Origin: Eukaryota sp. GEM-RC1
Taxonomy: Eukaryota
NCBI GenBank assembly: GCA_040285855.1
Contig: JAUFOQ010000005.1
Location: 1,860,001 to 1,924,000, forward strand
Direction: 5' to 3'
DNA length: 64,000 bases
Made by a program: the position numbers and the translations under genes. Each line of letters begins with the position of its first letter. Position 1 is the first letter of the stretch. Shown here in pieces: positions 982 to 64,000 of the stretch. The notes under the pieces are model-generated. The model did not search any database. It was given only the letters and a program-made list of their open reading frames with translations, and was not told the origin of the DNA.

Positions 982-2151
982 TCAGGATCTCAACCTTAGT
1001 TGAGTTTGGGAAGGTTTTAACGACTTCAAAGGGCCTCGCCAACGTCCATGTAGACGTCGAGGTTTCTCCACAATTCGGAGAACAAGATCACCTTCCTTGA
1101 ACTCTGGAAGATCATGTACACCAGAAGTAAGCGAATTGATGTAGGCTTGTTGATTCTTCTCTGATTCTTCCCACTTAGCCAGCAGGCTATGGGTCTTGGC
1201 AGCAAGCTCATCGATGAGAGGTAACGTGGTAGTGGAGGCTTTGTGAGCTTTAAGGGATTCGAGCAAGGTTAAGGGTGGCTTTCTTGGGTCAATATCGGTG
1301 CCAAACATTAATTGCCAAGGAGCAAACTTCGTAATTGAGTGATGTTGGCTATTTACTAAGAGCTGAACTAAAGGAATTTGAGCGGACCAATTGTTGTGGT
1401 TGTTAGTGTCGAAAAGATTGCGAATCAAATGCTTGTTGATCTCACGGTTTCGTCTTTCAACAAGACCGTTTGATTCATGCAGATATGGAATACTGAAGGA
1501 CGTGGTAACATTCAAGAATGCACACAGTTCCTGAAAGACTTTGTTTGCGAATTCTGGCCCGTTATCAGAATGAACAGCAGCAGGGATTCCATAGTGGCAC
1601 ATAACATCTTGGATAAAAGCAAAGGCGCATTTCCTGGCTGTAGCTTTGGGCACAGCACTCAAGATCGTGTAACGCGTAAAGGCGTCTACAAATAAAACGA
1701 CTCTACTATTGCCTAGAGAGTCAGTTGGCATAACCAGAGTATCCATATGAAGGCATGCGAATGGTTTGTGAAAATACAAAGAGCCATTGTGAGGAGCAGT
1801 TTTCTGACAACTGTGTCAGCATTTAACGTGGTTCTTAAGATCATCTAGCATGTTCGGCCAGTAGTAATCTGACTTAGACAGGGCTTTCGAGCAATTGGAG
1901 AAAGTTTCGTGACCGACGCGGTCGTAACCATGGCAGTTGAGCAGTATTTCAGATCGAAGGGAAGCAGGGATAAGGAGTTTTCCATGTTTGTTAGTAAATA
2001 ATTTTAGTTCGTCATTCCAGAACTTTTCGTAGTTTCCGTTAGGCATTTCGAATTGTTGAGCGGTTCTTAATTTATTTAGCCATGGATGAGTTTCAGAATT
2101 GTCAGCAGTAATCGAGAAGGTTGGGCTTATCAGCAAGTCGTCTGGAATCAT
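982..2151 (-). pseudogene. Retrotransposon integrase (HHCC zinc finger plus rve DDE core), split by a stop
   Basis: CHGYDRVGH...YYWPNM...HVKC*; LHMD, VDAFTRY, HSDNGPEF, SNGLVERRN. Confidence 0.9.
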
Positions 2152-2175
2152 TGTGACTGAGTAAGAGTCAGAAGT

Positions 2176-3604
2176 TTAAGATTTATAAGATGATGAATCA
2201 TCTGAGTCTGGTAAAGGAGCATTAGGAATAAGTTTGAGGTCTGGGTGAGCAGGGGTAAGACGTGAAAGTAGGTTGGCGAATAAGTTATTTTCACCTTCTA
2301 CGTGAATAAGTTCAAAGTTAGAGTTACTGAGGAGAGCCATCCAGCGAGTAACAATCCTAGATTTCTCTGGTTGGTTAATAAGAAACACTAAATTCTTATG
2401 ATCACAGAAGATAGTGAGAAAACGAGCAAGTAAGAAGGAACCAAGTGCGGGTTGGTTAAGGGTATATATAAGAGCAAAAAGTTCTTTTTGAATGATTGGC
2501 CAATTTCGCTGGCTTGGAGACAAGAGTTTGGAGTAAAAAGAGATCGGTTCGAGTTTCTGAACCGCAAGAGGAGCGGTAGTTGGAGTGTTATCCAATTTTT
2601 TCCACACAACACCTGCTATGGGCAGTGTCTGATGCATCAGTTGAGATGATAATTTTGGCATCGGGATCCGGGAGGGCTAAGGTGGTTGACTGGCAGATCA
2701 ACTCTTTAATTCGGATGAAGGATTTAGTATGTAGAGTTGTCCATTTGGCTTTCACTGTTCTGCTGTCGTGGGGGTCTTTCTTGGTGAGTGCAGTTAAAGG
2801 AGCAAGAAGGGTAGATAGGCCTGGGATTCAATCGCGGAGATAATTGATAGATCCGATGAAGGAACGAAGATCACCAACTGATTTGGGTAGAGGCAGCTCG
2901 AGGATTGCAGCAATGCGAATAGGATCAATAGAGCGTTTACCGTTTTCAAAGATAGCTCCTAGAATTTAATTAGGGCTATCGTTAGAGATAAAGGAACACT
3001 TCTTTAAACCGAAACAAAGACGATGAGTCTTAGCACGGAAGAAGATTTCTTGGAGGGTTTTAAGAAAGGATTCAGGAGAGTTGGCTGTGACAATCACGTC
3101 GTCTAAGTAGATGAAGACATTTTCCATTTTGAGTATCTTGTTCATTACGTTCTGAAAGAACACAGGGACGTTCTTTAAGCCAAAGGCAGCACGTTTAAAG
3201 TAAATTTTGCGACCAGGTATAGCCAAGGTGGTTTTCATCCAGTCCTGTTCTCGAAGTTTAAGTTGCCAGAAATCCTTTGGCAAATCCAGCGTTGCAATAA
3301 ACCGAGCTTTCGAAAGAAACATGGATACATCTGTAATTCTTGGTAAAGCTGCTTGCAGTGGTTTGGTCAAGGAGTTTATCCCAGGTGAGCCAGAGTAGTC
3401 GTTTGTTAGTCTAGGGCGTTTGCCATCAGGATAAAGGATGAGCACGATAGGAGATGCGAAAGGACAATCACGGGGAGCTTCTTCTGCGAAGCCATCCTTT
3501 ATAAGTTCGTCAAATTGCTCGTTGGCTATGCGTAACTTTTCGGGGTTGAGGTGGCGGGCTGGTTTCTTGCAGGAAGCTGACTTGTCATAAAAAGGAATTG
3601 GCAT
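2176..3604 (-). pseudogene. Retrotransposon reverse transcriptase and RNase H, frameshifted
   Basis: ASPIVL, LDLPKDFWQ, FGLKNVP, YLDD; RNase H motifs PISFYSKLLSPSQRNWPIIQKELFAL, CDHKNL, NLFANLLSR. Confidence 0.93.
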
Positions 3605-3741
3605 TTCAGGGCAAGCGATTCCCTCGGGGTGGGGTTGGCCAAAAATACAAGAATATGAGTTCGTAAGAGCCTTTAGTTGATCAGCGAGGTCAGTTGGTAG
3701 TTCTGTGCGGCAAAGTGACAGTTCTTCACTGGAAAGTGAGT

Positions 3742-4176
3742 CTATGACAAGGTTAGGGTTTGATGGGGGATCGGTTTCGTTGAAATTATTTGTTCGTGAG
3801 GAGGACGGTTGAGTGATGAGGTGATCGAGGCAAGACTCAGCCTCAAGGATCTTTTGTGTTCCTTGTCTAGTCTAATGAGTAGGCTATTACTGGATAGAAG
3901 GCCTAATTTCTTGAGGATATCACACCCAATAAGAAACTGTTTCTTACCTGGTATAACCGGTATCGTGGTTTTAAGATGAACCTGAAAAGAAATGAGGCGG
4001 TCGAAACAGAAGGTGAGCATACAAGCAGCGTTACCTTGAGAAGGTACCTTTATACCATCATCAGCCATGGTAAACGAGAGATTCGATGGTGAAATACGGC
4101 AACTAGTGGCTTCAGCAATATCACTGGAAAAACATGAAGTTTGACAAACAGAGTCCAGTGTAGCCATAAATGGCAT
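3742..4176 (-). CDS. Retrotransposon aspartic protease (degenerate)
   Basis: ATLDSVCQTS (LDSG-like) and FLIGCDIL motifs; lies between gag and RT. Confidence 0.7.
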   Translation of the reverse strand: MPFMATLDSVCQTSCFSSDIAEATSCRISPSNLSFTMADDGIKVPSQGNAACMLTFCFDRLISFQVHLKTTIPVIPGKKQFLIGCDILKKLGLLSSNSLLIRLDKEHKRSLRLSLASITSSLNRPPHEQIISTKPIPHQTLTLS

Positions 4177-4468
4177 GTTATTATCTTTGAACTCTAGCTT
4201 GGCTTAGCTTTCCAAGAGGAAATCGTTGGAGGGAAGACAAGAAGGAACAGAAGAAGATGTTGTTCGACCTATTACTGAAAAAGAATTGGCATCACCACCA
4301 TCTATGCTTGCAGCAACTACCTCACGTCCCGTTCCCCACACTCGTCGCCCGAAGCAATAGGCGTCACCGTGTACCAGTACCTTGCCAGCGGTCGAATTAA
4401 CTCGACCACGAAGCGCAGAACTGTTTAATGTACCGGGAGCCCTCCTACGCGGAACCGTGACTTAAGAG

Positions 4469-5462
4469 CAGGGTTCTGTAATATTGAATTGCCAATTCAA
4501 TATTGCCAATAAATATGGACCAATATTGATTGGTTGCCGAAAAACCAATACCAATATATTGCCAATATTGATCAATATGGATGTTTGGGTATTTTGTCTC
4601 AAACATCTATGGGACAATGTATACGAGTGTCTGTAAGCTGTACATTAATTGAACTTCTTAGTACATATGAGCCAACCACTTACGTTATGAGAAAATCTGT
4701 CAATCCAATAGAAGAATTATATAGTTCAAACTTAACTTACTCTTACTATCTTTATGACGGACAATAAAACAATCTGTCTCACCTTTTATTCCCTTACATC
4801 CAAGAATTTGAGTCCGGTATCTTGAAAGTAATTGATGGAACCGAAAGTTTATTTACTACTCAAGAAAAGAACTATCTTCAGAAGTTTGAAATGGGGGAAA
4901 GTCCTGTCATTTTGTTTCCAGAACCAGAAAGTCAGGAAGGAGAGAAAGGAACGCTTTCTGAACGAGCCTCTCAATTATCACAGACCAGAAGAACTGCCAA
5001 TAGAAAATATCAAGATTTGACTTGGATTCCAGCCACTTCTGTGGAGGTTGAGAGACTTTTTCCAAAGTCAAACTTGCAGTTGGAATGACTCGCTTTTCTT
5101 TATCCAATAGCAGATTGAAAGCTCAACTTAGGTTGCATTACAACAGAAGTCTTTGGAATGTTGGAACTGTTCGTAAAGCTTGTTGAATACGATTAATCAA
5201 TGTTAATCTACAGAAGTCTTTAGTTTTTTTTTCTGGATTAGTATGTATTATATTATAATTATTGTTGCAAGTACACTCTTCATTGGTTTTACAGTAGTAG
5301 TTTATTGTTTTATGCATTTTAGAAGTAGATCTTGATAAAGCTACTTCATATACTAGGTTTAACTATATTGGCAATATTGGCAATATATTGGTCGATACCA
5401 ATATTGATTGGAAGGTCAAAAACCAATACCAATATATTGCAATACAATATTACAGAGCCCTG
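4469..5462 (+). mobile_element. Non-autonomous hAT element nested in the LTR element
   Basis: TIRs CAGGG(T/C)TCTGTAATATTG; perfect 8-bp TSD CTTAAGAG (4461-4468, 5463-5470); CAATAT subterminal repeats; hAT dimerisation remnant YQDLTWIPATSVEVERLF (4822-5088). Confidence 0.93.
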
Positions 5463-5463
5463 C

Positions 5464-6417
5464 TTAAGAGGAGTTAACTGCAGGCAAGAGGAGATCAGCT
5501 TCTTCTGGAGAGATAGATGAATTGACTTCAACACTGGATTCAGACAGAGAGACGGTGAAAGTGTTGGAGTTTGGCAAGGGTGAGTGAAGGAACTGACAGG
5601 GTTCAAAGTCGAACGAAATAGATGTCTCATCATCTGAAGAGTCGGGTAAAGGAGCAGATTCAACCACAAAGTTCGTTTGTTTACTACTACGAGTAGCATG
5701 ACTCTTTGAGAAAGTAGGGTTGCGGGGATTGTAGGTCTTGATTGTTGGTTTCCAGGGGTTTAGGGGGTTGAATATTCTGAGCAGAGACATTGGGGGAGGA
5801 AATTTGAGAAGGGTTCGCAGAGTTCTTGAAATGTTGTGATCTTCGGCATTTGGGGTCACGGCAGTACTCAATCGTGTGCCCAGGCTTCTTACAGAAGGAG
5901 CAAAATCTACCATTCTTATTGGAGGTAGCTGAAGAGTTGGGATGATGAGACCTGTTTTGGGGTTCAAAGTTTCCAGCAGGGTTGTTGTTGGTTGAGTTAT
6001 TTTGAGGATAAACTAAGTTTTTGTTGTTGGAGTAAAGTTTTAGAGTGTCAAAGAGTTCGGATGTACGAGCAATAACTTCGGAAATGGAATCAAGGGAGGA
6101 GCAATGAATTTCATCAAAGATGATGTTTTGGATAGAGCGGGGCTGAATACCACGAGCAAAATGTTCCAGAACTTTAAAGTTGCTGGGCAAAAATAAACGA
6201 CATCGAGAGAGAGTTTGTCTGAAAGCAAGGAAATACTGAGACAGGCGGAGATTTGGATTGTTTAGAGTGGAATCCATGGAGAGTGAACGTAGTAATGAGC
6301 GAGCTTCAGTAGCGTTTTGACATAAGGTCTTGTCAATAAGAAAGTCCCATAGGTCGGGTTGGGAAGAAAGAGAATGAGGTGAGAGAATGCGGATAAGGTC
6401 TCAAACTTCATTGGAGA
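5464..6417 (-). CDS. gag C-terminal part with CCHC zinc knuckle
   Basis: ORF 5687-6277 contains CSFCKKPGHTIEYC; lies between the two nested insertions. Confidence 0.8.
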
Positions 6418-6419
6418 TA

Positions 6420-7587
6420 CTGTCAGGCGCCAAATAGTACCCCGGGTCACTAAATTATAGCCCCACCCCCAAACTGGGTCACTATTAGGAGGGGGTCACT
6501 ATTAGGATCCTTTTGTCTTTGTTCATAAATGACCCATAAAACAACTTTTATATTTCAATATAACTCTAGTCAAAGACTGCAACAACATCATTATCCATCC
6601 CCAAATTCAATGAATTGTTGAGTTGAAGAAGGTCATCGATGTCATCATCAGACGATGAATCCAAATCGATTACTTCCTCCTCATCACTTGATGAATATGG
6701 TAATAATGCATCGAAACTATTGATATCTAAGTGAGGACGGATTGATGAATGGCGAGAAATCAATAAGGTCTGCGAAGGCCCTAGAAAAGACACTTGAAAA
6801 GATTTTGATATTACTTCACTCTTTAACTTGTCCAACGACTCTTTCATCCATTTTGCCATATCGTTAGCCAAAGGTGCTCTAACTCGATTGGAGGTCGTTA
6901 CAGGTGCAGTCTCCAACCATTCTTCAATACAATTCCTGATAGTTGCTTTCATAGGTTTGAACCAACTGACGTCTGCTGGCTGTAATAATCCAGTTAAACC
7001 ACCGAGAATCAAAACATAGTTGAACCCCCTTTCCTTGAGATAAGCCTTGACCTTCTTACTTCGATGGGCAGGAGCTGAATCAAATACCAATAGCATTCTG
7101 TTGGCAGCAGCCTTACTGGTCAATGGAAACATTAACTGCAGATATTTGATGAATAAATCTCCATTCATCAAAGATGATTCTCTTTTCAAGATAAAGCAGC
7201 CTTCTTCTCTATTGGTTCTGTTTCCTGATCTTTGTGCTATAATGGCAGGAGTTTTTTCACTCCTAGAGCGTTAGCCATAACGATTCCGGTCAAACGTACC
7301 TTTGCGAGACCTGTAGACTTAACAACAACAATCTTTTGGTCAATAAAATCAATTGTTCTTGATTCATTTGGTTCACAAAATATGGCAGTTTCATCACAGT
7401 TCCAAATACCACTATTAAATCTGAATCTAATCGTATATTCTTTTTATTGACATAAGACTGTTTTTATCACCCATTTGTGTGATCTTGATCAACACTGGGG
7501 CACTAAATTATAGCCCCACCCCTAAAGTGGGTCACTATTAGGAGGGGGGCACTATTAGGAGGTGGGTCACTAATTGGTGCCTGACAG
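6420..7587 (-). mobile_element. pogo/Tigger-like (DDE_1) DNA transposon derivative nested in gag
   Basis: TIRs CTGTCAGGC(G/A)CCAA(A/T)TAGT flanked by TA (6418-6419, 7588-7589). ORF 6566-7189 has LVFDSAPAH and GGLTGLLQPADVSWFKPMK. Confidence 0.9.
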
Positions 7588-23475: not shown

Positions 23476-26400
23476 TTTATTCGGCACCCAATAAGGTAAC
23501 CTTCTTACAAACTATGAAATTGTAAAAACAAACAAATAATACTAAGATTAAATCCAAACGACTTCATCACCACCCGGTAAAAGATTAAGTTTATCAACAT
23601 TAACCTTCACACCAAACTTGTACAATTTCTCAAGTAATCTAGAGAAATAGAAAGGCATATTCCGATATATGGAAAACACAATACGGTTTTTCCATTCAGC
23701 CATTCTAAACTTACGCTTCTTTTCTTTACACAATTCTTCGCAATCCTTGAAAAATTGATCACCAACAGGACTAATAGATCCAAAAAGAGAAACAGCAAAA
23801 GGTTGAAACACAAATATGGAATATGAGTTTCTATTTAATTCTTCAACTTGAAGATCATACTTGGAGTGTTTGAGCTTTTCAGCAGCTGTTAACGGGTTAA
23901 AAGAAGAATCTAATATCCTACTAACACAAGATTTGTTACATACATCTACTGTAGTAAAATCCATTAATGATTGACTCGATTTAAGCCACGGAGTATGTAG
24001 ATCCCCTCTTTTTTGATCAGTGAATTCATTTTCTGAAAGATGATTCAAAACTGGTTCAACTTTAGAGTGAAACCCATGTGCTTTAAACATGGAATAACAA
24101 GAATCACGTACACCATCATGAATTACTGCACGTAGACGAATAAAATAACGACAATTAATTAAATGACGAAAAACACCATTAGCTCCACAAGAGCAAGTTG
24201 AATAGTTTAATAAATTGGAATTTGCAGGCCAAATAGCCAAACGAAGACGCATATTGATCATCCAAGCTTCATCAGATAGATGTAATCCATACACCTTTTG
24301 GAATTTGAGAAATAAATCCAGAAGGTCCACTATTACAAAGATCAATTAAAAAAGCAGCGAACTCGGGACTATTAGTTTTAGCCAAGCTAATACGATTATT
24401 AAAGTCCAAGAGTTCAAACTCTTTGGCAATTAATTTTATAGCTTACATACAGTAGACGGTAGAGATGAAATATTTTTTAAAGGAACCTCCTTCAAATGAG
24501 CAGGGAACAAAGATTCCCACATTTCAGGAGACAAGGATGATACCAAATCTTTAGCAGATTGAATCCAACGGCAATTACTGGAATTCAACAGATTGATTCC
24601 ATCCAAGGGAAACCGTTTCAAAAATTCAAACATAAAATTCTTAACACCTCCTAAAAGAGCAGATTTTCTAATGATTTTTGCATGGGTGAAACCTACTCCT
24701 GCGAATTCAGAAGAATTAAAAGCATGAAATGGAATCTTAGACTCATCAATTTCAGCCAAGTTAGAGAGATAATTTGTTCTAATAGAATTAAATTTCTTGG
24801 CAAATGTTTCCAGTGAGGGAATAGTCTAATGAACGTAAAAAATGATTAATTTTCCCGGAAAAACAGACCTGAAGCATAGCAAAGGCAACATGTTTACTCA
24901 CATCTAAAGATAATATTTGATTTAGTTTTTCTTCAATTGTAGTTAATGAACCCTCCAATTCTGAATGAATTTTCTCATAATTTCCCAAAAATGTGCCAAG
25001 GAAACGAAAACATTGAGTAGAATAATCGATGATAGGAATATTACGAAAACCAAGATTAGAAACATTCGAAGACTTAACAACAAGAAAACACTTATCAAAA
25101 TTGATTGTTAAACCAATACTCAAAGAAAGTTCAATGAAACGTGAAAAACACTTTTTGAGAACGTCAACTGGAGCGATCAGCGAAGAATCATCAGCATAAG
25201 CACAAATTTTAACAGTTGGAAATTCTAATTGTAAGATTTTAAATAATTTTTGCAGAGCGAGACAAAACAAAAAGGACCCAAAGGATCACCTTGCTTAACC
25301 CCTATAGTTGATTTAATATCAAACTTGTCAAAAATTAAATTCGACGCTTTCCCATAAAAAAGGTTAAAACAAGGAATCAACTGAGGAAAAAATTTAGAAA
25401 GTTCGTCAGATATAGTTGATCTTAAAACACAATTAAATGCATTTTTAAAATCAATGTTCAAAATAGCATTTTCCTCATTTGAATGAAAAAGAAAATCAGA
25501 GGTTAAAGCAGCACACGTAGTACCATCAGGAACTCCAACTGCAAATTGAAACGGTCTAAAGAATTCAACAGAGGAATCTCTGACTCTCCTAAAGCACAAA
25601 GTTGAAAAAATACGAGAAATTGTTTCACCCACTGCAATTGGTCTCACACCTCCATTTGGTTTGCTTAAAGCCACTAATCTAGAAGAGCAAAGAGCATGAG
25701 GTAATTTCTTTGTGCCTAATAAAACTTCATTAAAGAAAACAGCAAGATCTTCACAAATTTCAGGAACAGCATTAACGGCAATTTTAAAATGATCAAAACT
25801 CATACCAGAAGGACCAGCAGCACGACCAGAAGGGGATGACGAAATTAATTGTAAAATTTCATCAACTAAAACAGGTTTGTTAGTCCAGTACGACATGGAA
25901 AGTTCACCAAAAACCGGATTACTTCAACAGGGTGTAATTTTTTCAGTTTTTCAACAGTTTCAACAGAAACTTCAGCTGGAAGTGTGTGATTAAGGGAGGA
26001 CAAAGCAGAAGAAAACTGACCTCGTAAAACAAGATTTTGAAATCTTTTAGCAATAAACTTATCACTAACTTGAGACTTAAGAACAGGTTTAATTTTTCTA
26101 TTGGACTTCTTAACAATTGACAACATATATCGCCAAAAGGTGCGGGATTCCAAATTCCACCACGTAAAATTTGTGTCACACTTCTAAGAGCAGTCCCGAC
26201 ATTAACGGCCGCCATTGGAGATATCATGATAGGAATTCTAAATTGTGGACGACATACATCAATAGGTGAACAATCAAAACACACAAGAAGTGGACGATTG
26301 GATTTATTTTTCCCAGAAACAGATTTAGCACAAAAAGACAGGTCAATGAAATTGATGAATTAATTTTAGGCTCACAAACAGTCTCTTGGAAATCAAGAAC

Positions 26401-51697: not shown

Positions 51698-52955
51698 GGT
51701 GTGGTAAGAACTTTTCTCCAACCCTGCTGATTTGATCTCGATTTGGTTTTAAAACCAAGAACCCAAGAACTCCTACCGGTTCTTACTCGACTGTGAACAG
51801 AAACCCACAATAGTGTCTCTCTCCGTCGAGTATATATGATCCATGATGTCATTCACATCCGTTCTTATATGAATTTGTGTTGAATTTTTAGTTGAAGTGA
51901 ATTCTCATCATAAAACTGTTTAAACTTATTAAAACGGGCTAAACTTATTAAAACATTGGTTTAGCTTGTGGATTTGACCTGAACACTCTAAACATTGGGT
52001 TGACCTTCATAATCATACTACATAGCTAAATCAATAACTGTATGAAAGAGAATCCATCTATAATGTACCACTTCTAATGTACTTTTAAAAGCAATATAAC
52101 GTGAAGTACACTAATTTCTAAAGTTAAATTCTCCAAAATCAACGCAGGATGTGTCCTTTTCCAATTAGGATTAACAAGACTAAAAAGAGTTCTTCCCAAA
52201 TGATCATACACAGACTTTTTCCTTGAGCAACGTAAAACGACAGATTCACATTCATACTGCATTCAAAACTACTGGACCTCGATGACCGTAGTTTTGTTCA
52301 CTGTTTCAGTTTTATTACTGTTTTTGGTCAAACCAATCAGTTTTCTTCAAACGATTCACCTAATTAGAATGCTGACTATGTTTAGTCTCTCTTGATCACC
52401 ATGATAAACGCTTAGAGCGCAGTACTGTATGCTTTTGCAAACAAGTTATCTTTAAGTAGATAAACCACAACTAGGAATCTTCATCGTCCTTGGTGCATAA
52501 GATTACTTTACATTGCTGACTTCAATCCAATGGTCGAAATTTCCCACGTGTTTTTTAAAAGACACGGTGTTGGTGTTAACACCGTTGTCCACACGGTGTC
52601 TTTGATGTGTTTTTTTGAAAACAAGTGTGATCCACTTTGTAGAGTTTGATTTGATGAACACTGTTTTGGGCCAATTCTTGCATTTATCTGACATTTCATC
52701 ACTGAATCTTGGATTCTGTGGTTCTGTCGAGTTGAATTGGTGTTTGAGAGCGCATTATGTCAGTATTTTTGCAACTTTTTGCTGGCATTGTAGTCCATTG
52801 TTGTAGAACTTATAGGAAAACATTCAAATCAAACACTATCGAGGGGAGATAAAAGGGTTCTTTCGAAGTTTTCTGCAGAAAAACACATACACACGCGGTG
52901 TCTTTTTGCGTGTTTTTGAAAAGACTCTATCAAAGACTGCTTCAACCTACTACTA

Positions 52956-53751
52956 CAGTATCCTCTCTATATCTTCTCTCTGTATATCTTCTCACTCTCT
53001 ATAAATTCTCGCTTTTTTCAATTCCCTAAGTCATTTGGTTATCTAACTTCTCGGTTTATATCTTCTCGCTTTTTATGAGCCAAACTATCAAACATCGTAA
53101 ACCAAAACCCGTAGAAATTGGTGTCAAACAATCAGCGCTACTCATTTAGTATGCTGATAAAAATGCACACTTAAAGAATACCGATCTAGCCCTGTGGCCA
53201 AAGAAACCTTCAATTTTCCTGCACCTCCTCACCGAACAACTATAGTAAAAATACTCAAACGACGTGCTCAAATTCTTGAACAAGCAATTACACTAGAAAA
53301 GAAGTTAAGACAATCAAAAGGACACGAACATTAAAATATTCTGAACTAGATGCAGCTCTTGTTTTGTTTGTGGAAATGAACTTGTCACTGATGATAATCA
53401 CTGAAGACGTAATTCTGGCAACCACAAGCTGAAGTCTCTAGAACAGAAGTATAAAATGCTCTTACAGCTTTGCAATCCTATGTTTCTGTCAACTTTCACT
53501 GAAAACACTCCTCGTAATACACTTTGGATGAAGTTTAACGTGAGTTTCAGGAATTAAGAGTTGAAGAATTGAGCCAAAGAACTTTGATGCACTTTTTCCA
53601 CTCTTCAAACAATGCACATGTGATTGTTATTGAGTAGACTTAATAAACATATGTATTATTTGGGTTTTAAACATAATTGTATATCTTCTCGCTCTCTATA
53701 TCTTCTCGGTTTTTGTGTTCCCAAAGGCGAGAAGATATAGAGAGGATACTG
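52956..53751 (+). mobile_element. Non-autonomous pogo/Tigger-like element
   Basis: TIRs CAGTATCCTCTCTATATCTTCTC / GAGAAGATATAGAGAGGATACTG flanked by TA; internal TATATCTTCTCG repeats; decayed CENP-B-like HTH coding (PHRTTIVKILK, KYSELDAAL). Confidence 0.85.
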
Positions 53752-53906
53752 TAGTAGTAGACTGCACAAACAATTAATTAACATCACAAATCTCTTTGTG
53801 TCTTGGAAATCCATTGCTCCCAACATAACAATAAACATACTTATGTATATTAGACAATAGAAGAAATAAAAACCCTTTACACATAAACAATACTCTGTCA
53901 AACAAC

Positions 53907-54760
53907 TTAGTTCAAAAGATAGTCAACAACTAGCTCAAACTCTCTATTTACAAATTGCTTAGAGAGTGATACGGCAGCAACGTGACGGTGATCTCTGGGA
54001 GCATCAATTTCGGATCCAGCGGTGAACATCTTGTCATACAACCCATAGAAAGAGATTTGTTCGTCACCGTGACTATAAATAGCAACATAGTGGAAGGCGC
54101 TCTTATCGACTTTTGCCTGTTTAGAGAACTTGGTATTGGCCTTGATGGAATCAGGGAAGAAGGACTCACAATGAGAAACACCATCGCATTCAACTCCTTC
54201 GAGCTTGAGGGTCTTGTTAGCAAGATTGTGGATAGAGAGATCTATGGAAACCTTCATGTCGGCGTTCCAAGGACCATCGCGTGGAAGATCAACATGCTTT
54301 GGGGTCAAGAAACTAGGTCTATCACCGAAAACGGTATCAACAAGCCCGTAACTGAAGTGAGAGTTGAATGAACGATATACCCAAATGAAGGAAGAGTTAG
54401 AAGACAAGATACATGGACTCCGGAAAAACCTTGAGCGGAAAATGAAATGGATCCATTAGTATCTTTGTGCATGTCGGTAACAAGAGCTACATCACAACCT
54501 TGAGGACATAGGGGGAAATCAGTGACCTTGTAATGAAGAACCATTTGGAAGTCGTTTCTTGCTTCAACACCAAATCTATAAGGTGTTTCGGGGCGCATAA
54601 TATTGTCTGGACGAGGATTAAACACAGCAAAGGGGCTGAGACGTTGAGACGTAAGAACCATTCGGCCTATACGAGAAGTGAACTCACCTGCGTACTGAGT
54701 ATAGAAATGATCACCTAATACTGCTGAAAGCGTGACGAGGAATAACAAGAAAAGTCGCAT
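53907..54760 (-). CDS. Putative secreted protein of unknown function (two overlapping ORFs, probably one frameshifted gene)
   Basis: Signal peptide MRLFLLFLVTLSAVLG; ORFs 54305-54760 and 53907-54407 overlap near an A/T run; partial copy at 60369-60697. Confidence 0.65.
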
Positions 54761-54921: not shown

Positions 54922-55203
54922 TTACATGCAGACTTTCTTGCTCACACTTCTAAGAGGAGCTATACGAACTTTAGCACTACAGTCTTCTGTTGATCCTGTT
55001 CCGTTCTCTTTTGTCTTCTGTTGATCAACAGTTTTTCTGTTCATCGGACAGTTCCTTTTGTCATGACCTGTCTCATGACACATTGAACACTCTCTCAAAA
55101 TCTTTGAAATCATCTTCTTTTCTTTCTTCTTCTTAGAACATGATCTAGAATTGTGACCGACTTCGCCGCAGTTTGTGCATTTTCTTTTCTTCTTAATCGC
55201 CAT
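54922..55203 (-). CDS. Two CCHC zinc knuckles, probably the C-terminal extension of the Fanzor
   Basis: CTNCGEVGHNSRSC and CSMCHETGHDKRNC; overlaps the Fanzor 3' end; adding one A in the A6 run (plus-strand T run 55231-55236) joins the frames. Confidence 0.7.
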   Translation of the reverse strand: MAIKKKRKCTNCGEVGHNSRSCSKKKKEKKMISKILRECSMCHETGHDKRNCPMNRKTVDQQKTKENGTGSTEDCSAKVRIAPLRSVSKKVCM

Positions 55204-57774
55204 TCCGTTCTCGAATTCATTTGTTTGAGATTTTTTCTCTCAAGAACGGAAGGTCTACTTCTACCTTGGATTGCTGCTTCAATAATACTGTGAATGTTGA
55301 TACCAGAGTTAAAGTCTCTGTTCCAGTATGTTTCACACGTGGCGCATCGCGTTAAACCCCATGGTGAAACCTTTGCTTCCTGGAGTTTGCTTTTTAATCC
55401 ATCTTTTTCTTTTTCCCATTCATATTTAAAGTTTCTCTGATCTTTACCCAACAGTAATTTTTGTTTGTACTCAACAACCTCTTTCTGAAGTTTCTTCTTT
55501 TTACGATTTAACTTAATTTTCCAATTAGGGTCTCGGACTTTATCATCTTTTAGGTTCGAGCAAAAGCCTTCTGTTCCAAGCAATGTGCAACTCGAACAGC
55601 ATTTGCTAGTTCGATACTCATCGACTAGAAAAACTTGGTATCCGAATTTTCGGAAAAGTTTCCTCATAGATTTGCCTTTTACAAATGATCGTTTTCCAGT
55701 TCGTTTGGCTTTTCTAGAATCAATCCAATCACCAAAACCAATAATTACTTCTCCTGGTGACCCGAACTTTTGAGCAAAACGATGAAGCATATTTTGATGA
55801 CTCCTCTGATTGTTCGAGTACCTCTTCAGTCTCTGGCGTCGGAAAAACTTTTTCTTCTTAAAATGTGCCTATCAGAGCCCCATAAGCTTCTGTTTCTGTT
55901 AGATACAAACTGTACTTATCTACAAAGTACTTCTATTCTTTTGGTTACCCCAAAGTTTAGGTTACCCCGCAGAAGTGGTTGCGGGGTAACCAAAATGACG
56001 TAACCAAAAGGGTACTTACTTATCTGAGGTAACCGAATTTACCTTGCCAGAGGATACTCTGGAGCTGAAATTATCAGCAATTTCCTTGCCAGTCATGTGA
56101 CGACCATTTACTGTGGTTGTGAATTTCAGAAGCTTTGAGGTTTCATCGTCAGGCTCTCTGACTTGCTCATTTGGTTGCTTGTTCTTTTTCTTTTTCTTGA
56201 TAAATCTGCCTCTCTGGTCAGCAGTTCGTTCACCAGCTGTGTACCGGAATGTTTTCCAGCTGTGGCTTTTTTTCAATTTAACTTTGGTTATTTCTTTTTG
56301 TCTCTGCTTTGAGTCTTTTCTTCTCTTTTTTGAGTCTCTTCTTCTCTTTTTGTATCCCCCCTTTCTTTTTGCAATTAATTTGTGAAAGTTGTTTAGATCG
56401 AGTCTTATTTGACAGGTCAAATCCCTCTTGAATTTTTTTCGCTCTCAGTTTTCGGACTAACACAAAAGATTAAATCGTGTTGGTTAGGATCAATTGCTAC
56501 GATTTTTTTTGCCTGTGAGATTTAATTTAGTAATTTCTTCCGTTGTCAGAGAGTCCACATAGCGTTCTTCTTCAGCCAAGTCATTTGCTGAAAGATTTTT
56601 TCTAGGATTTCCATGAGAGTCCAACAAATCCTTTCTTGTCATGAGCAGGGAAGTATAAACACCATCCGTTGTAATAGAGGTAAAAGCAAAGTCATAAGAT
56701 AGGGAAGTTGGAACTGATTTTGGTTTAAGAACAGTATTCCATAATTCCTTCCTTATTGTATCCATTTCTCCCTTGAGATCTGATAAGAATCTTAATTGAA
56801 ACCAGTTAGAGTCCAGTCTCACGTGACCAGGAATTAGTGATGACGTCACTGGAAAGGGATTGGTGACGGAGACATTATCACAGAATTCCTCAATCAGTCT
56901 GTTCAGATAGATTGCATGTGAAAGGAACTTAAGAGGGTTTACTTTTTGAGCATAGTATAATCCCTTTGGCATTTTCTTGTTTAATTGACATGTCAAGTAA
57001 GTCCTAAAAGCAATAGTTAACCTAGAATTGGTGGGAAAAATAGTTTGATCCTGAAAATCAATTAAATCAATTTGTCCGTTGACAATCAACTCTCGGATGC
57101 TGTTAAGCCGCTGATAAAAAAGTTTTCGTTCATCTTCACACTCAATTTTCATGGCTCTAGATTTTTTCTCCGTTACTAAGTTGAAGACTCGAAAGACATA
57201 GGAGTGAAAGTGTTTTGCCATATTATTCTTGTAACTGGTGGAGATCTCAGTGGCCATGTAATCAAGTAGTCTGGGTAAGTACAAGTTACTTGGGAATTTT
57301 ACCATTTGCTTACCAGCAACTATAGCAGCAGCGTTCAAAAGAGGAAGGAACTTAGTGAGTAGATGATCAATAAGTCGAATTTTAAGCAGAATCAAAGAAT
57401 TGGATTTTTTTGCGACCTTTTCAAGTCTTCTTGGCGTTCAAGGACAATCTGGCTCAAATGGTCAGATGAACCGTTTTTTTTGTTCGTCATCAAAGATAAC
57501 AAAACCTTCAAGGTTTCTGATCCAGAATTTCCGAGTAATTTGGCAAATTACAATGTGTTCCCATAGAATCTTTAAATTTCAAATATTCACAGTCAAATTC
57601 GTGAATCAAAAAATGTTTTAGGAAGTGAGTTCCTCGAACTCTAAAGTGGTGACTTCTTTTCACACACGATTCGATAACTTTGATTTTTGATTTTGTCACA
57701 ACTTTGGTGAGTCTTCTTTTAATCACCTTCATTGGAGATTTTTCTCTGATTTTCTGCTTGTTTCCATCAAACAA
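55110..57774 (-). pseudogene. Fanzor1 (TnpB-derived RNA-guided RuvC endonuclease), frameshifted and MITE-interrupted
   Basis: ITTDGVYTSLL; RuvC-I KIVAIDPNQHDLIFC (about 56460-56505, outside the ORF track frame); FRRQRLKRYSNNQRS; IGFGDW; VDEYRTSKCCSSC; RCATCETYWNRDFNSGINI...RPSVL. Confidence 0.9.
55922..56016. mobile_element. 95-bp foldback MITE inserted in the Fanzor ORF
   Basis: 9-bp duplication TACTTATCT (55913-55921, 56017-56025); nested inverted repeats CTTTTGGTTAC/GTAACCAAAAG and GGTTACCCCGCA/TGCGGGGTAACC; removal restores VTSDK-YSLYLTETE. Confidence 0.85.
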
Positions 57775-57775
57775 G

Positions 57776-58820
57776 TCACAAGCAATGAATTAACAGATGC
57801 AGGCGATCAATTGCATTTTGCAGTAAACGGGGTCTTGTTGATGAAGCCTTCCAAAGGTCATTGATTGTGTTTAGTTCACTAGAAGTTTTTAACCTAAACA
57901 ATTGCTTTGCAGATAGTGCAGAAACATTATTTTCCGCTTTGAAATTAGCGATAGCTTCATCAATATAATACAGAGGATTGGTTAGAATTCGTATTAATTC
58001 GGAATTTTTCCAATTTTTTGATCATATTCCAACATAATTTGAGTTACGTCTTCCAATAAGCGACCACCTTTAAATTTGTACAAGGATTTAAAAACTGAGT
58101 TTAAATCCAGGCAGTGAAATGGACCAAAAGAGGATGTTTTGCACCATCTCTTAAACCATGTGGGTACATGTGGAGTATATCCGTTAAATTGAAAATTAAC
58201 ATCAATCATCAAATGGTTGCATCTTGAAATCAAAAATGGAAAAGTGAACTTGTGACAGTTATATCCAATCAAAAGCAGTGGACGCACAGCTTTGAGGAAT
58301 TCAATCAGATTAACCAGCATCAATGTTTCTGAACTAAATCCATTGATAGAACAATCTTGAATATATAGTTCATGGCAACCCCAAGTAAAGAGATAAGTGT
58401 CGCCTTGACACCCAAGAGACGAGCAAAATTCCATTGATACAGATACAATGGAATCGTTACTTCCATCATAGGAAAACTCGTGTGTTAGGTCTTTCACTTG
58501 TGGCCCTTGACAGTCTTCATCATCACTGTCATGTTCCTCAGCGACCTCTGGATTGAGGCGATGGTCTTCAGAGATAATAGCTCTGATTTCCATAAAGCAA
58601 AATAATTTATCCAATGTCTGGATGTTTTGTGCTTTCAATGGAGTTGGAGATAGTTCCATTGAAAGGCGTTTCACACCTCTCGTTGGATGAGGAGAAACAG
58701 GACCTCTAGCGCAGTTCACTGACGGAAAGGGATTCATGAAACCAAGAATAGTCGGTGTCGGTAATGTGATTGATTTGTTCTTACTTTCCCCTCCATTGGA
58801 TTCCGTTTCGTGATTTATAG
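57776..58820 (-). CDS. Family-B DNA polymerase 3'-5' exonuclease-like domain, catalytic acids apparently lost
   Basis: SETLMLVNLIEFLKAVRPLLLIGYNCHKFTFPFLISRC (ExoII GYN...FD.PYL..R pattern with D to T); HCLDL...LEDV; a shifted frame continues to INDLWKASSTRPRLLQNAIDRLHLL (ExoIII position), ending near 57776. Confidence 0.65.
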
Positions 58821-60368
58821 TTCAATTTGATTTTGGAATGCAGTTTGTTTTCCTTGACACTAATACTACAGTAAAACTTCTTCTAGTTCTTACACCCCTT
58901 TTCTTCTTGTTTTCTTCTTGTTATACCTTGTTGTACCTTGACTGTCTTTATAACTTTGTGTACTTTCAAGGACATTCTTGAAGCATCTGTCATAAATAAG
59001 CCACCTGCTGATGACTGAAACTACTATTAATGTCTACCAAACACTTCTTAATCAAGTTGAAGATCTTCTCAATTCACTTGTACATATCTTCTCAAAATTA
59101 ACAACCCTGGACATTCGTCACTCTCGCTGCTTTCCATAAAATACAGACCAAAATTCCGTAATGTTCCTCCTGACTTATCCTTCCGTTTCTTCTTCTTAGT
59201 TCCTGTAGCTTCTCTTCATGTAGCTTATGTTTGAATCTCTTTCTCCCTCCGTGTTCACATCTCTTTCTCTCCTGTAATATATATCGTATAAAACACAGTG
59301 ATAAGGTCTTTTTATTTCGAATCGTCCATAAACACTAAGCTAGAGGCATCTGATGTTCTGGTGGTGGTGCAAATTTTTGAACACCACTCTTCCCGGGTTT
59401 TACGGGAAGAGATCGAATATCTTCGTGTGAAAGAAGAAGATCCCAAGTCAAACCCATTGCGATGTATAAGAAATCTTCAGGAACGGAAGAGAAGGCGAGG
59501 GAGATGAGGGAAGATGTTAGGTCCAAAATTGTAAAGGTCTGAAATGCGGATCAGACCGAGATTACAAACCTCAATACATTTAATTATAGTTTATTAGTCT
59601 ATTTTGATAAACGATGAGCACATGTTGGCGTACTGTACCTTCTTCTTAAGACAAATTAAATGTTGTTGATGTGGTGTCTGTGGATGTTTGCAAAAAAACA
59701 TCCTTAAAGAATGATGACTCTGAAACGTCTCCTGTAGGCATTTTTGAACAAGCCAAACAGGAGAAGCAAAATAAAACCATTGATGGATCTAAAACATGTG
59801 AACTATGTCGAATATGAGTTAAGTCTTTCTGATGTATTAATCTATGCCGTTGATGTTGTGTGTGTCGATCGTTGCAAAAGGACAACTTCAACTTTAAAGA
59901 ATGGATTTTTTGCAACAGTACATTTCGCAAATTTCAGAACAAACAAAGTTTGATAAATGCAAAATATGATAAATTGTTCTACTGTTTTGAAAACCATCAA
60001 CCCAACGTCGCCAATGCATTACTAGTAATTAATTCTATGCATGACGACAAAGCTATGGCAAGATTTGATAGTGATTGGTTATGATCAACTATTAGTTTCA
60101 ATAGCTAATTACATTCATAAGTACTACAGTTGAAGATGCAAAGCGACCTTTGAAAGGATTTAATTCAAAAAGACAAGAAATTAATATTGCAGTTTTAGCT
60201 CTGACCAAGACTTTCTTAGGTGTGGGATACTCCAAAAGACATGTTAAGGTGCCTAAGTGTATTCCTTCTGTATTAATTGTGTTTGTATATCATGACCACT
60301 ATTAAAGAAAAAGTTCTAAGCCAACTGTTGAGTTGTTTAAAACCATTTACAAATTACAGTACTAGTAG

Positions 60369-60697
60369 CATGAACAATGCTCTGTCAATTTGACAGTGTC
60401 AAACAACTTAGTTCAAAAGATAGTCAACAACAAGCTCATAATCTCTATTTACTAATTGCTTAGAGAGTGATACGGCAGCAACGTGGTGATGATCTCTGGG
60501 AGCATCAATTTCGGATCCAGCGGTGAACATGTAGTCATGCAAGTTATCTGACAACCCATAGAAAGAGACTTGTTCATCACCGTGACTATAAATAGCAACA
60601 TAGTGGAAGGAACTCTTGTCGACTATAGCCTGGTTGGAAAACTTGGAATTGGACTTGACGGAATCAGGGAAGATGGACTGACAGTGAGAAACACCAT
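60369..60697 (-). pseudogene. Diverged duplicate of the 3' part of the secreted-protein gene (53882-54185)
   Basis: Direct repeat: TGTCAAACAACTTAGTTCAAAAGATAGTCAACAAC ... GAGAAACACCAT. Confidence 0.9.
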
Positions 60698-62694: not shown

Positions 62695-63033
62695 ATGATA
62701 CGTGTTTACCTTTTCGTTTTGCTGATCGTTGTGTTTGCCAACTGTACTATCCATCAGGTCCAAGTTCACAATAGATCTTCTTATACATTAACAAGAACTA
62801 AAAGGTCCACATCTGGTCGTATTGAGTCCCACCCTGCAAGGACTCTTTATCCACTTATGTGGACTACCTATGCCGTAAGTGGTGATAACATTTCTTGGAG
62901 TGGCCTAAGATACACTGGCAACCGCCAGTCTGGATATATTAGATTTGGAGAAGGTGGGTGTACATGTGAGGGATGTGACTGCCGTGTTCAAACAGTGTCT
63001 TCTACCGCTTGGAAGGTCTATCTCTATTGCTAA
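62695..63033 (+). CDS. Small secreted Cys-containing protein
   Basis: Signal peptide MIRVYLFVLLIVVFANC; clean 112-aa ORF, GC-richer than its flanks; CTCEGCDC. Confidence 0.7.
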   Translation: MIRVYLFVLLIVVFANCTIHQVQVHNRSSYTLTRTKRSTSGRIESHPARTLYPLMWTTYAVSGDNISWSGLRYTGNRQSGYIRFGEGGCTCEGCDCRVQTVSSTAWKVYLYC

Positions 63034-64000
63034 TTATGTAGCGTGTGTCGGTTCTTTTTCTCAATTTTCACATCATTACTGATGTCTCAAGCTAAGTTAC
63101 AAGCCCCCAAGTTTGATCATCTACAAATTTTATACATACCGTCTTGGTAGGAATGTAAACTTAAAAAAGAGTCCAAGTGTGCTTGTATTGTTTACTTTCT
63201 ATTTGTCACAATTGACGCTAATAAACAATGGTTTTGGAGATATAACGAACAGTAGTGGTGTAATCTGTCAATCCCACCTTAGGACTGAACTATGATCCCA
63301 AAAACTCTCCTATTGCTGAAGGTGTGCTACTCATAAATTTGGTTTAAAATAGTTAAAAAGCTCTTTGCCAATATAATTGAAACAATAAAAATTGTAAATT
63401 ATTTAGAAAAACATTTTGTAGTTTTTATTATTTATACTGTAATAGATCAAACAAATAATATTTGATATCATTAAAACAACACCCGTCGCTATCAAATCTG
63501 ACAACAGCAGCTTTGTACCCATTAAAGGAACTCACTGCTAAAAAAGCTTTGGAGATGATTAGGGGAACTGTTTTTAAAACAGTAAAAACGATTTGATTCA
63601 ACCATAACGTTGAATAAAACGTTTGTGCATTCTATTTTTAAATCTTTTCCGAAATCGTTAAATCAATTCAATGTACTTCTTCCTTAATGTGAGTAAATTT
63701 AAACAGCAAAAGGGCATAATTCGTATTCAACATTTTTTACACGTTTTAGATCCATCAATGTTTTCTTGTACTTATCTTGTTTAGTTTGTCCAAAGATGAC
63801 TAAATGAGAAGTTTCCGAGTGAGCCTTCTTTAAAGACGTCTTTTCACAAGCATCCACTGCTTCTACATCAACAACAAATAATTTGTCTGAAGAAGAAGGG
63901 ACAACAGCGTCTGCCCCCGTTTACCAAAAAAGTTGGTTATGTTTTTGGACATTACATTTGTAACATGAATCTAAAGATCTTGGAAGTGGCTCAACAAATG

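Follow-up and report, generated by a model that had tools for sequence, protein, structure and literature searches.

A multi-copy gene of Skoliomonas type, broken in this copy, that fuses a PolB-exonuclease-like domain to Fanzor1

The window, a stretch of 64,000 nucleotides, carries on its minus strand a gene of Skoliomonas type, known in multiple copies and broken in this one, in which a PolB-type exonuclease domain is fused to Fanzor1. The gene runs from 58737 to, probably, 54922 (Table 1). The initial annotation had given its extent as 55110..57774, which falls short at both ends: the start lies some 1 kb further upstream, and the stop at 55110 closes a tail that is not in frame. Moreover, 55110–57774 is not one open reading frame; translation shows the Fanzor1 motifs to be scattered across all three frames of the minus strand.

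Table 1. Features of the exonuclease–Fanzor1 gene in the window.
Feature	Position	Strand	Remarks
N-terminal part	57780..58737	-	PolB 3'-5' exonuclease-like domain ~58611-57780; ExoI Asp and ExoII Asp replaced; frameshifts 58019, 57790
Fanzor1 WED/REC region	56520..57779	-	collinear with P0001, P0278, P0283; frameshift 57509, at least one more ~57500-57440
RuvC-I DPN	56483..56491	-	D at 56491; same motif in SpuFz1
Basic insertion after RuvC-I	56250..56480	-	~+60 aa; frameshifts 56516, 56428, 56298 in or beside the insertion
Hairpin insertion, MITE-like	55913..56025		104 nt; direct repeats of 9 bp, TACTTATCT, at 55913 and 56017
Premature stop 55858 and frameshift 55851	55843..55862	-	alignment to P0122
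RuvC-II shifted glutamate and first Cys pair	55587..55628	-	E 55619; Cys pair 55601-55587
Stretch between Cys pairs	55347..55586	-	80 aa (~+50 aa), basic, modelled as two helices
Second Cys pair and RuvC-III WNRD	55314..55346	-	D at 55316
Probable true C-terminus	54922..55239	-	past frameshift 55234; CCHC knuckles 55179-55138, 55089-55048; stop 54922

The surroundings hold LRR gene copies and pieces of retrotransposons and of DDE transposases, and resemble in this the repeat-rich genomes of Skoliomonas. At 982–7168 and 25225–25896 lie remains of an LTR retrotransposon, with reverse transcriptase, RNase H and integrase, along with pieces of a DDE_1 transposase and of another reverse transcriptase. 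A gene family with LRR_6 (84-bp repeats) is scattered over both strands between 10400 and 51700, in no fewer than seven copies or fragments. Closer to the Fanzor gene, an 814-bp element at 52947–53760 is bounded by terminal inverted repeats of 32 nt that match perfectly, and has subterminal repeats inside; it resembles a non-autonomous element of the pogo/Tigger type. A small gene without Pfam match (116-aa ORF at 53907–54257) occurs twice, at 53896–54184 and 60397–60697, the copies being 88% identical and flanking the Fanzor gene at a spacing of 6.5 kb; the second looks 5'-truncated. An inverted, 77%-identical pair (59634–59844 and 63694–63903) is probably what is left of some repeated gene or of an element, and small ORFs at 54305–54760 (minus strand) and 62695–63033 (plus strand) have hydrophobic N-termini like those of secreted proteins and no Pfam match.

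The element's own ends and guide RNA were sought around the gene. The flanks share two near-perfect inverted 12-mers, a number inside the range of 0–6 obtained from shuffled sequence; the RNA fold downstream is unremarkable (z −0.6); no Rfam match near the gene comes close to its gathering score; and 58821–60400 contains no transposase-sized ORF, the longest being 95 aa from stop to stop.

Among the matches listed, the best relatives are NCBI proteins of Eukaryota sp. GEM-RC1, TZLM3-RCL (hereafter RCL) and TZLM1-RC, and the closest named ones, 94–99% identical, are labelled GEM-RC1. Both GEM-RC1 (Skoliomonas sp. GEM-RC) and RCL are Skoliomonas, free-living metamonads with repeat-rich genomes (PMC11316075), which bears out the metamonad-type host first suggested. 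GEM-RC1 holds several related Fanzor families, one cluster of which has 26 member proteins; that the gene is multi-copy follows from the proteins alone.

As assembled, the window copy is dead: its frame is shifted at eight located sites and ends early at a premature stop, and a 104-nt insertion with a 9-bp target duplication interrupts it. It is of no use as a tool. These breaks are directly visible in frameshift-aware alignment to relatives. One further frame change is required at ~57500–57440, where there is no close intact sibling to align, and much of the Lys/Arg-rich insertion lies in a different frame from the long open one. The 104-nt insertion is missing from a 94%-identical sibling (P0122) and folds strongly (z −6.5; none of 200 shuffles was equally stable), and has the look of a short, non-autonomous transposon. 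Target duplications of 9 bp are typical of Mutator-like elements.

A different account of the copy's state, though not of any mechanism, is that most of the breaks are long-read assembly errors, so that the window subfamily is alive and this copy owes its death to the hairpin insertion alone. A homopolymer of at least five bases lies within 12 nt of six of the eight located frameshifts, against a background of 18% of gene positions; a single A-run sends the window, P0294 and the three read-through siblings into three different frames; and the assembly behind the named siblings was built from Nanopore data and corrected with Illumina (PMC11316075). However, natural slippage likewise prefers homopolymers, neither the premature stop nor the 104-nt insertion with its target duplication is of the homopolymer-error type, and the window copy differs from its siblings by ~5% in protein. 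We judge the chance of this account to be nearly even, and on the lower side.

The RuvC-bearing part of the gene is Fanzor1, as initially annotated. RuvC-I, RuvC-II, both Cys pairs and RuvC-III can all be read from the minus strand, and the catalytic positions are kept (the glutamate within LVDEYRTSK, the last aspartate within WNRD). The unbroken 252-aa RuvC/zinc-finger piece (55113–55868) matches Pfam Cas12f1-like_TNB (E 2.3e-7) and, among solved structures compared by sequence, SpuFz1 (E 5.7e-10) and PpFz1 (E 5.7e-6); the PDB sequence matches of the gene family are Fz1 proteins. The C-terminal motif described for Fanzor1, D-X(125,275)-[TS]-[TS]-X-X-[C4 zinc finger]-X(5,50)-RD (PMC3627910), is present in the window with all its elements; not counting the 104-nt insertion, D and E lie 256 codons apart. 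In the RCL relatives this distance is 277–279, slightly above the range of the motif. As in Fanzor1 generally, the RuvC-II glutamate is shifted, standing six residues ahead of the zinc finger (E-Y-R-T-S-K-C, 55619–55601). By analogy with studied Fanzor1 proteins, an intact protein would be likely to cut DNA under RNA guidance.

At RuvC-I the Asp-Pro characteristic of Fanzor1 is supplied by DPN at 56491; the literal DPG, the RuvC-I motif in the preprint of Yoon et al., is absent. DPN had been regarded as unusual and as a sign of divergence, a view that we abandon: SpuFz1 itself reads 'vvidpnkrd', with N385 coordinating Mg (PMC10432273), and of 197 readable motifs among 256 non-Skoliomonas proteins 99 are DPN and 98 DPG. 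In 160 viral and metagenomic Fanzor loci there were 27 DPN and 85 DPG, with 48 unread. Screens based on DPG thus miss about half of the Fanzor1-like proteins in our sample.

The two basic insertions proposed at the outset are real. Following RuvC-I, the distance from the aspartate to 'FRY' is ~81 aa, whereas 161 non-Skoliomonas relatives have a median of 20; it reaches at least 60 in only three of these, one of which is a pattern mismatch, and measures 78–96 aa in all seven Skoliomonas proteins spanning the region. Between the Cys pairs stand 80 aa, where 221 non-Skoliomonas relatives have a median of 31, which makes the insertion ~50 aa long and not the ~60 aa first estimated. Gaps of at least 65 aa occur in six of the 221 relatives, a few unrelated Fanzors with equally long but different insertions, whereas 20 of 22 spanning Skoliomonas proteins have gaps of 67–80 aa (the remaining two, 59 and 44). 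Judged from these sequences, both basic insertions mark the Skoliomonas relatives. In the model of an intact relative (P0283, below) the second forms a confident two-helix segment. Long RuvC insertions are not, however, new in kind: PpFz1 of Parasitella parasitica (PDB 9cf0–9cf3) also carries one, a ~100-aa FRI domain that binds cyclophilin (PMC11423790), which we liken to the insertions here by its length.

At the C-terminus, the stop at 55110 was rejected as the real end of the gene, since the frameshift at 55234 leads into a frame with two CCHC knuckles. The ORF concerned (54922–55239) matches Pfam zf-CCHC (E 1.7e-4), and a knuckle lies in frame at the C-terminus of P0123, P0278, P0290 and P0132. 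The CCHC motif is found in 15 of 301 proteins, all from Skoliomonas, and in none of the 160 Fanzor ORFs of the viral and metagenomic loci. The two knuckles are probably the C-terminal end of the gene and, together with the basic insertions, likely add nucleic-acid-binding surface.

The family's distinguishing feature lies outside the interval annotated at first: it is an N-terminal PolB-type exonuclease domain. The upstream ORF (57994–58737) matches Pfam DNA_pol_B_exo1 (PF03104) at E 2.7e-9, and its 90% cluster has five members: the window's own, P0294, P0292, P0293 and P0295. P0294 is broken at the same A-run as the window, while in P0292, P0293 and P0295 the frame stays open past the exonuclease and enters the first segment of Fanzor, which aligns with the start of an ordinary Fanzor1 (P0001; 29% over 160 aa). 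In these siblings the fusion is read directly. P0295 tracks the window DNA at 95% identity over 425 codons with indels of 1–2 nt alone, and therefore no intron joins two genes. That the upstream ORF is a separate PolB gene was considered and dismissed: siblings read through, Fanzor follows directly, and the polymerase domain expected of a B-family polymerase gene (palm, fingers and thumb; PF00136) has no match in the fusions.

The longest protein found of the window's own subfamily has 428 aa, short of full length. Intact relatives had been anticipated and do exist, the only full-length ones found being P0124 (1473 aa) and P0283 (1479 aa) from the second Skoliomonas, RCL. Known as gene predictions, they contain an exonuclease (Pfam E 5e-13) and a complete Fanzor (TNB, E 2e-7 and 1e-6) each; P0284 and P0285, also from RCL, are partial. 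P0124 and P0283 keep an ExoI-like FDVET, ExoII GYNCDKFD, ExoIII YCxND and the RuvC D/E/D, and the DEDDy motif set (ExoI DxE, ExoII D, ExoIII YxxxD) is present in both and in P0285. ExoII and ExoIII of the RCL proteins were aligned with viral PolB rows; ExoI FDVET was placed by motif and position only, as MAFFT failed across an acidic insertion. The window subfamily lacks the motifs of an active DEDDy exonuclease: its ExoI strand reads FMEI, its ExoII GYNC(D/H)KFT (FD to FT), and there is no YxxxD. Its domain is accordingly predicted, from these motifs and from modelling, to be a dead pseudo-exonuclease with a retained fold. The two Skoliomonas families share 38% identity in the core of the exonuclease, compared to 26% across the Fanzor part as a whole; the comparison suggests that the exonuclease is kept under constraint.

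Ahead of the fusion, residues ~105–121 of P0124, P0283 and P0285 hold a 2A-like StopGo motif (LLLDGDVEANPGP in P0283). It reads GDVEANPGP in P0124 and P0283 – the consensus is D(V/I)ExNPGP (PMC12338488) – and is changed to NLGP in P0285. The motif is absent from the six-frame translation of the window; a MAFFT pairing of 'MNPFP' with 'ANPGP' was treated as chance.

A search with the RuvC/zinc-finger piece gave 1087 representatives at E 0.001 or better, 150 of which were listed. In a quick IQ-TREE phylogeny of RuvC-II to RuvC-III (130 rows, 168 columns; P0001-like set thinned ~1/6, P0123 and other fragments dropped), built without a named Fanzor2 or TnpB reference, the window, two GEM-RC1 families, P0125 and three RCL fusions form a seven-row clade (SH-aLRT 97). 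All 11 Skoliomonas rows fall on one side of a branch, with a support of only 83. The proposal of a divergent subfamily thus holds insofar as the subfamily is distinct; DPN is not its mark.

Among 301 proteins, the exonuclease HMM matched only eight, all from Skoliomonas; the proteins of other Skoliomonas families are N-terminally incomplete. It found nothing in six-frame translations of the 160 viral and metagenomic Fanzor loci, 108 of which have at least 1.5 kb upstream; these loci, obtained with the clade alignment, are 30–36% identical over the RuvC piece (one partial match, 54%) and are ordinary Fanzors. Viral contigs held no close DNA relatives for either the RuvC piece or the exonuclease alignment, a phage collection gave no match, and the ESM Atlas yielded no usable match for the fusion and, for P0293, only PolB exonuclease clusters under 0.9. 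A search for exonuclease homologues among proteins of 2590–5000 aa returned nothing, which says nothing on the fusion's spread. One metagenome contig carries a 1099-aa Fanzor1 ORF (L007:717–4013) with ~400 extra residues and no Pfam domain beyond TNB.

An AlphaFold2 model of P0283 (residues 277–1452; alignment of 114 of ~300 proteins) predicts a WED/REC/RuvC/NUC fold of the Fz1 type for this intact relative, in answer to the question, raised with the initial annotation, of whether the protein has a RuvC/WED fold. Mean pLDDT is 70, high in the Fanzor core and low in the thinly aligned exonuclease; because exonuclease values are mostly below 50, the placement of that domain relative to the cut is not readable from the fusion model. 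The top seven Foldseek matches are Fz1 structures (E 1e-15 or better), with PpFz1 giving the best E-value (6e-21), while a Fanzor2 structure ranks 25th (E 0.035). Against SpuFz1 the Fanzor part has a TM-score of 0.76 by target (0.73–0.77 across structures; E 3e-18). In the model the Fanzor WED strand starts directly past the exonuclease.

For the exonuclease, a model of P0293 was built on an alignment of five relatives and 50 viral PolB fragments, which biases it toward the PolB fold. Its pLDDT is 59 overall and 70–90 in the core. The predicted fold matches the Pol delta exonuclease (Z 14.6, rmsd 3.6, 196 residues) and PolB proofreading domains (Foldseek E 1e-6), and the match covers the exonuclease of Pol delta and Pol epsilon. 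Pfam and profile matches to PolB exonuclease are independent of the alignment used. The domain therefore resembles the proofreading exonuclease of B-family polymerases (Pol delta, 3iay; Pol epsilon; RB69 gp43; PF03104) in sequence and predicted fold, with ExoI, ExoII and ExoIII in the RCL relatives. In contrast to those polymerases, no polymerase domain follows the exonuclease, a ~40-aa acidic insertion lies past ExoI, and the window subfamily is without catalytic aspartates.

What might a nuclease so equipped do? If the gene behaves like studied Fanzor1, an omega-RNA from the element's 3' end would guide RuvC to cut beside a TAM, and cuts would fall at copies of the element's insertion site, helping the element to persist. 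The fused exonuclease may then act on the freshly cut ends, biasing repair away from clean re-ligation. In the RCL lineage it would trim the cut 3' ends; in the window subfamily, because the catalytic aspartates are lost, the domain would act only as an end-binding module. We favor this reading – that the intact fusion likely cuts DNA under RNA guidance and that the exonuclease probably binds and, in the RCL lineage, trims cut 3' ends – and give it an even chance of being right. Against it count the fact that 3' trimming does not yield the 3' overhangs required by homologous repair, the lack of any guide or element ends found near the gene, and the absence of the ExoI and ExoII aspartates from the window subfamily. 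In addition, engineered exonuclease fusions impaired editing by MmeFz2 (PMC12923547).

The exonuclease could instead be a passenger, a piece of PolB captured once and irrelevant to cutting, which would make the protein an ordinary Fanzor1 whose N-terminus is much extended. The N-termini of Fanzors are highly variable (PMC3627910), catalytic residues have been lost in the window subfamily and the window is littered with transposon fragments; yet the domain has been retained in two diverged families at 38% identity, its catalytic motifs are intact in the three RCL copies that span it, and in the other family it is foldable, all of which makes a passenger unlikely. A further alternative assigns the exonuclease to the guide: DEDD-family domains include RNases, and the CCHC knuckles suggest extra single-strand binding. 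That it trims, in place of the cut target, single-stranded transposition intermediates or the 3' end of the omega-RNA, whose transcript runs on into the flanking DNA and which must finish at a defined 3' end (PMC10432273), is nevertheless improbable, given that the closest sequence and fold matches are proofreading domains of DNA polymerases, which act on DNA, and that Fanzor1 proteins without an exonuclease domain work.

Extending the favored reading, in which the exonuclease acts on cut ends, we tentatively propose that skoliomonads carry a natural 'cut-and-trim' Fanzor1, whose captured proofreading domain would chew back the DNA ends created by the enzyme; in one lineage the protein would be released from a polyprotein through a 2A-like skip, and in another the domain would persist as a dead end-clamp accompanied by zinc knuckles. 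This is possible, and we hold it to be rather doubtful.

With SpuFz1 of Spizellomyces punctatus (PDB 8gkh, 9ceu–9cez; PMC10432273) the intact relative shares its predicted fold; DPN, the shifted glutamate, the C4 zinc finger and WNRD are common to both, as is a multi-copy state in a eukaryotic genome. Unlike SpuFz1, the proteins described here have an N-terminal PolB exonuclease, two long basic insertions and, by subfamily, CCHC knuckles or a 2A-like motif, and neither inverted repeats nor an omega-RNA were found near the window gene. At ~1,200–1,480 aa the fusions are also longer than most Fz1 proteins, which have 600–700 aa (PMC11423790). Retrotransposons with DnaQ-like domains likewise place a 3'-5' exonuclease on a mobile element, but within LTR retrotransposon polyproteins (PMC6338049); engineered fusions join an exonuclease to an RNA-guided nuclease but are man-made (PMC12923547), whereas here the fusion to Fanzor1 is natural. 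A literature search, to which subscription papers and Repbase were external, found no natural Fanzor–exonuclease fusion (judged by title and abstract, the papers listed on the subject are reviews or deal with engineering), no paper on TnpB fused to a DEDD exonuclease domain and none on a 2A-like NPGP motif in DNA transposons; for Fanzor in Skoliomonas, metamonads or Trichomonas, the term 'Fanzor' was in none of the matches listed. The word 'exonuclease' does not occur in the main texts, supplements aside, of PMC3627910, PMC10432273, PMC10530073, PMC11423790 and the Yoon preprint.

The exonuclease–Fanzor fusion is a new form of Fanzor1, with intact-looking members in a sister lineage. An element that brings an end-processing domain of its own, seemingly active in one sister lineage and dead in the other, makes it testable whether the element steers the repair of its break. 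P0124 and P0283 are candidates for a programmable nuclease with a built-in deletion bias. If the proposal is true, a cut-and-trim nuclease would be the natural counterpart of engineered exonuclease–Cas fusions, and would provide evidence that Fanzor elements control the repair of their own breaks.
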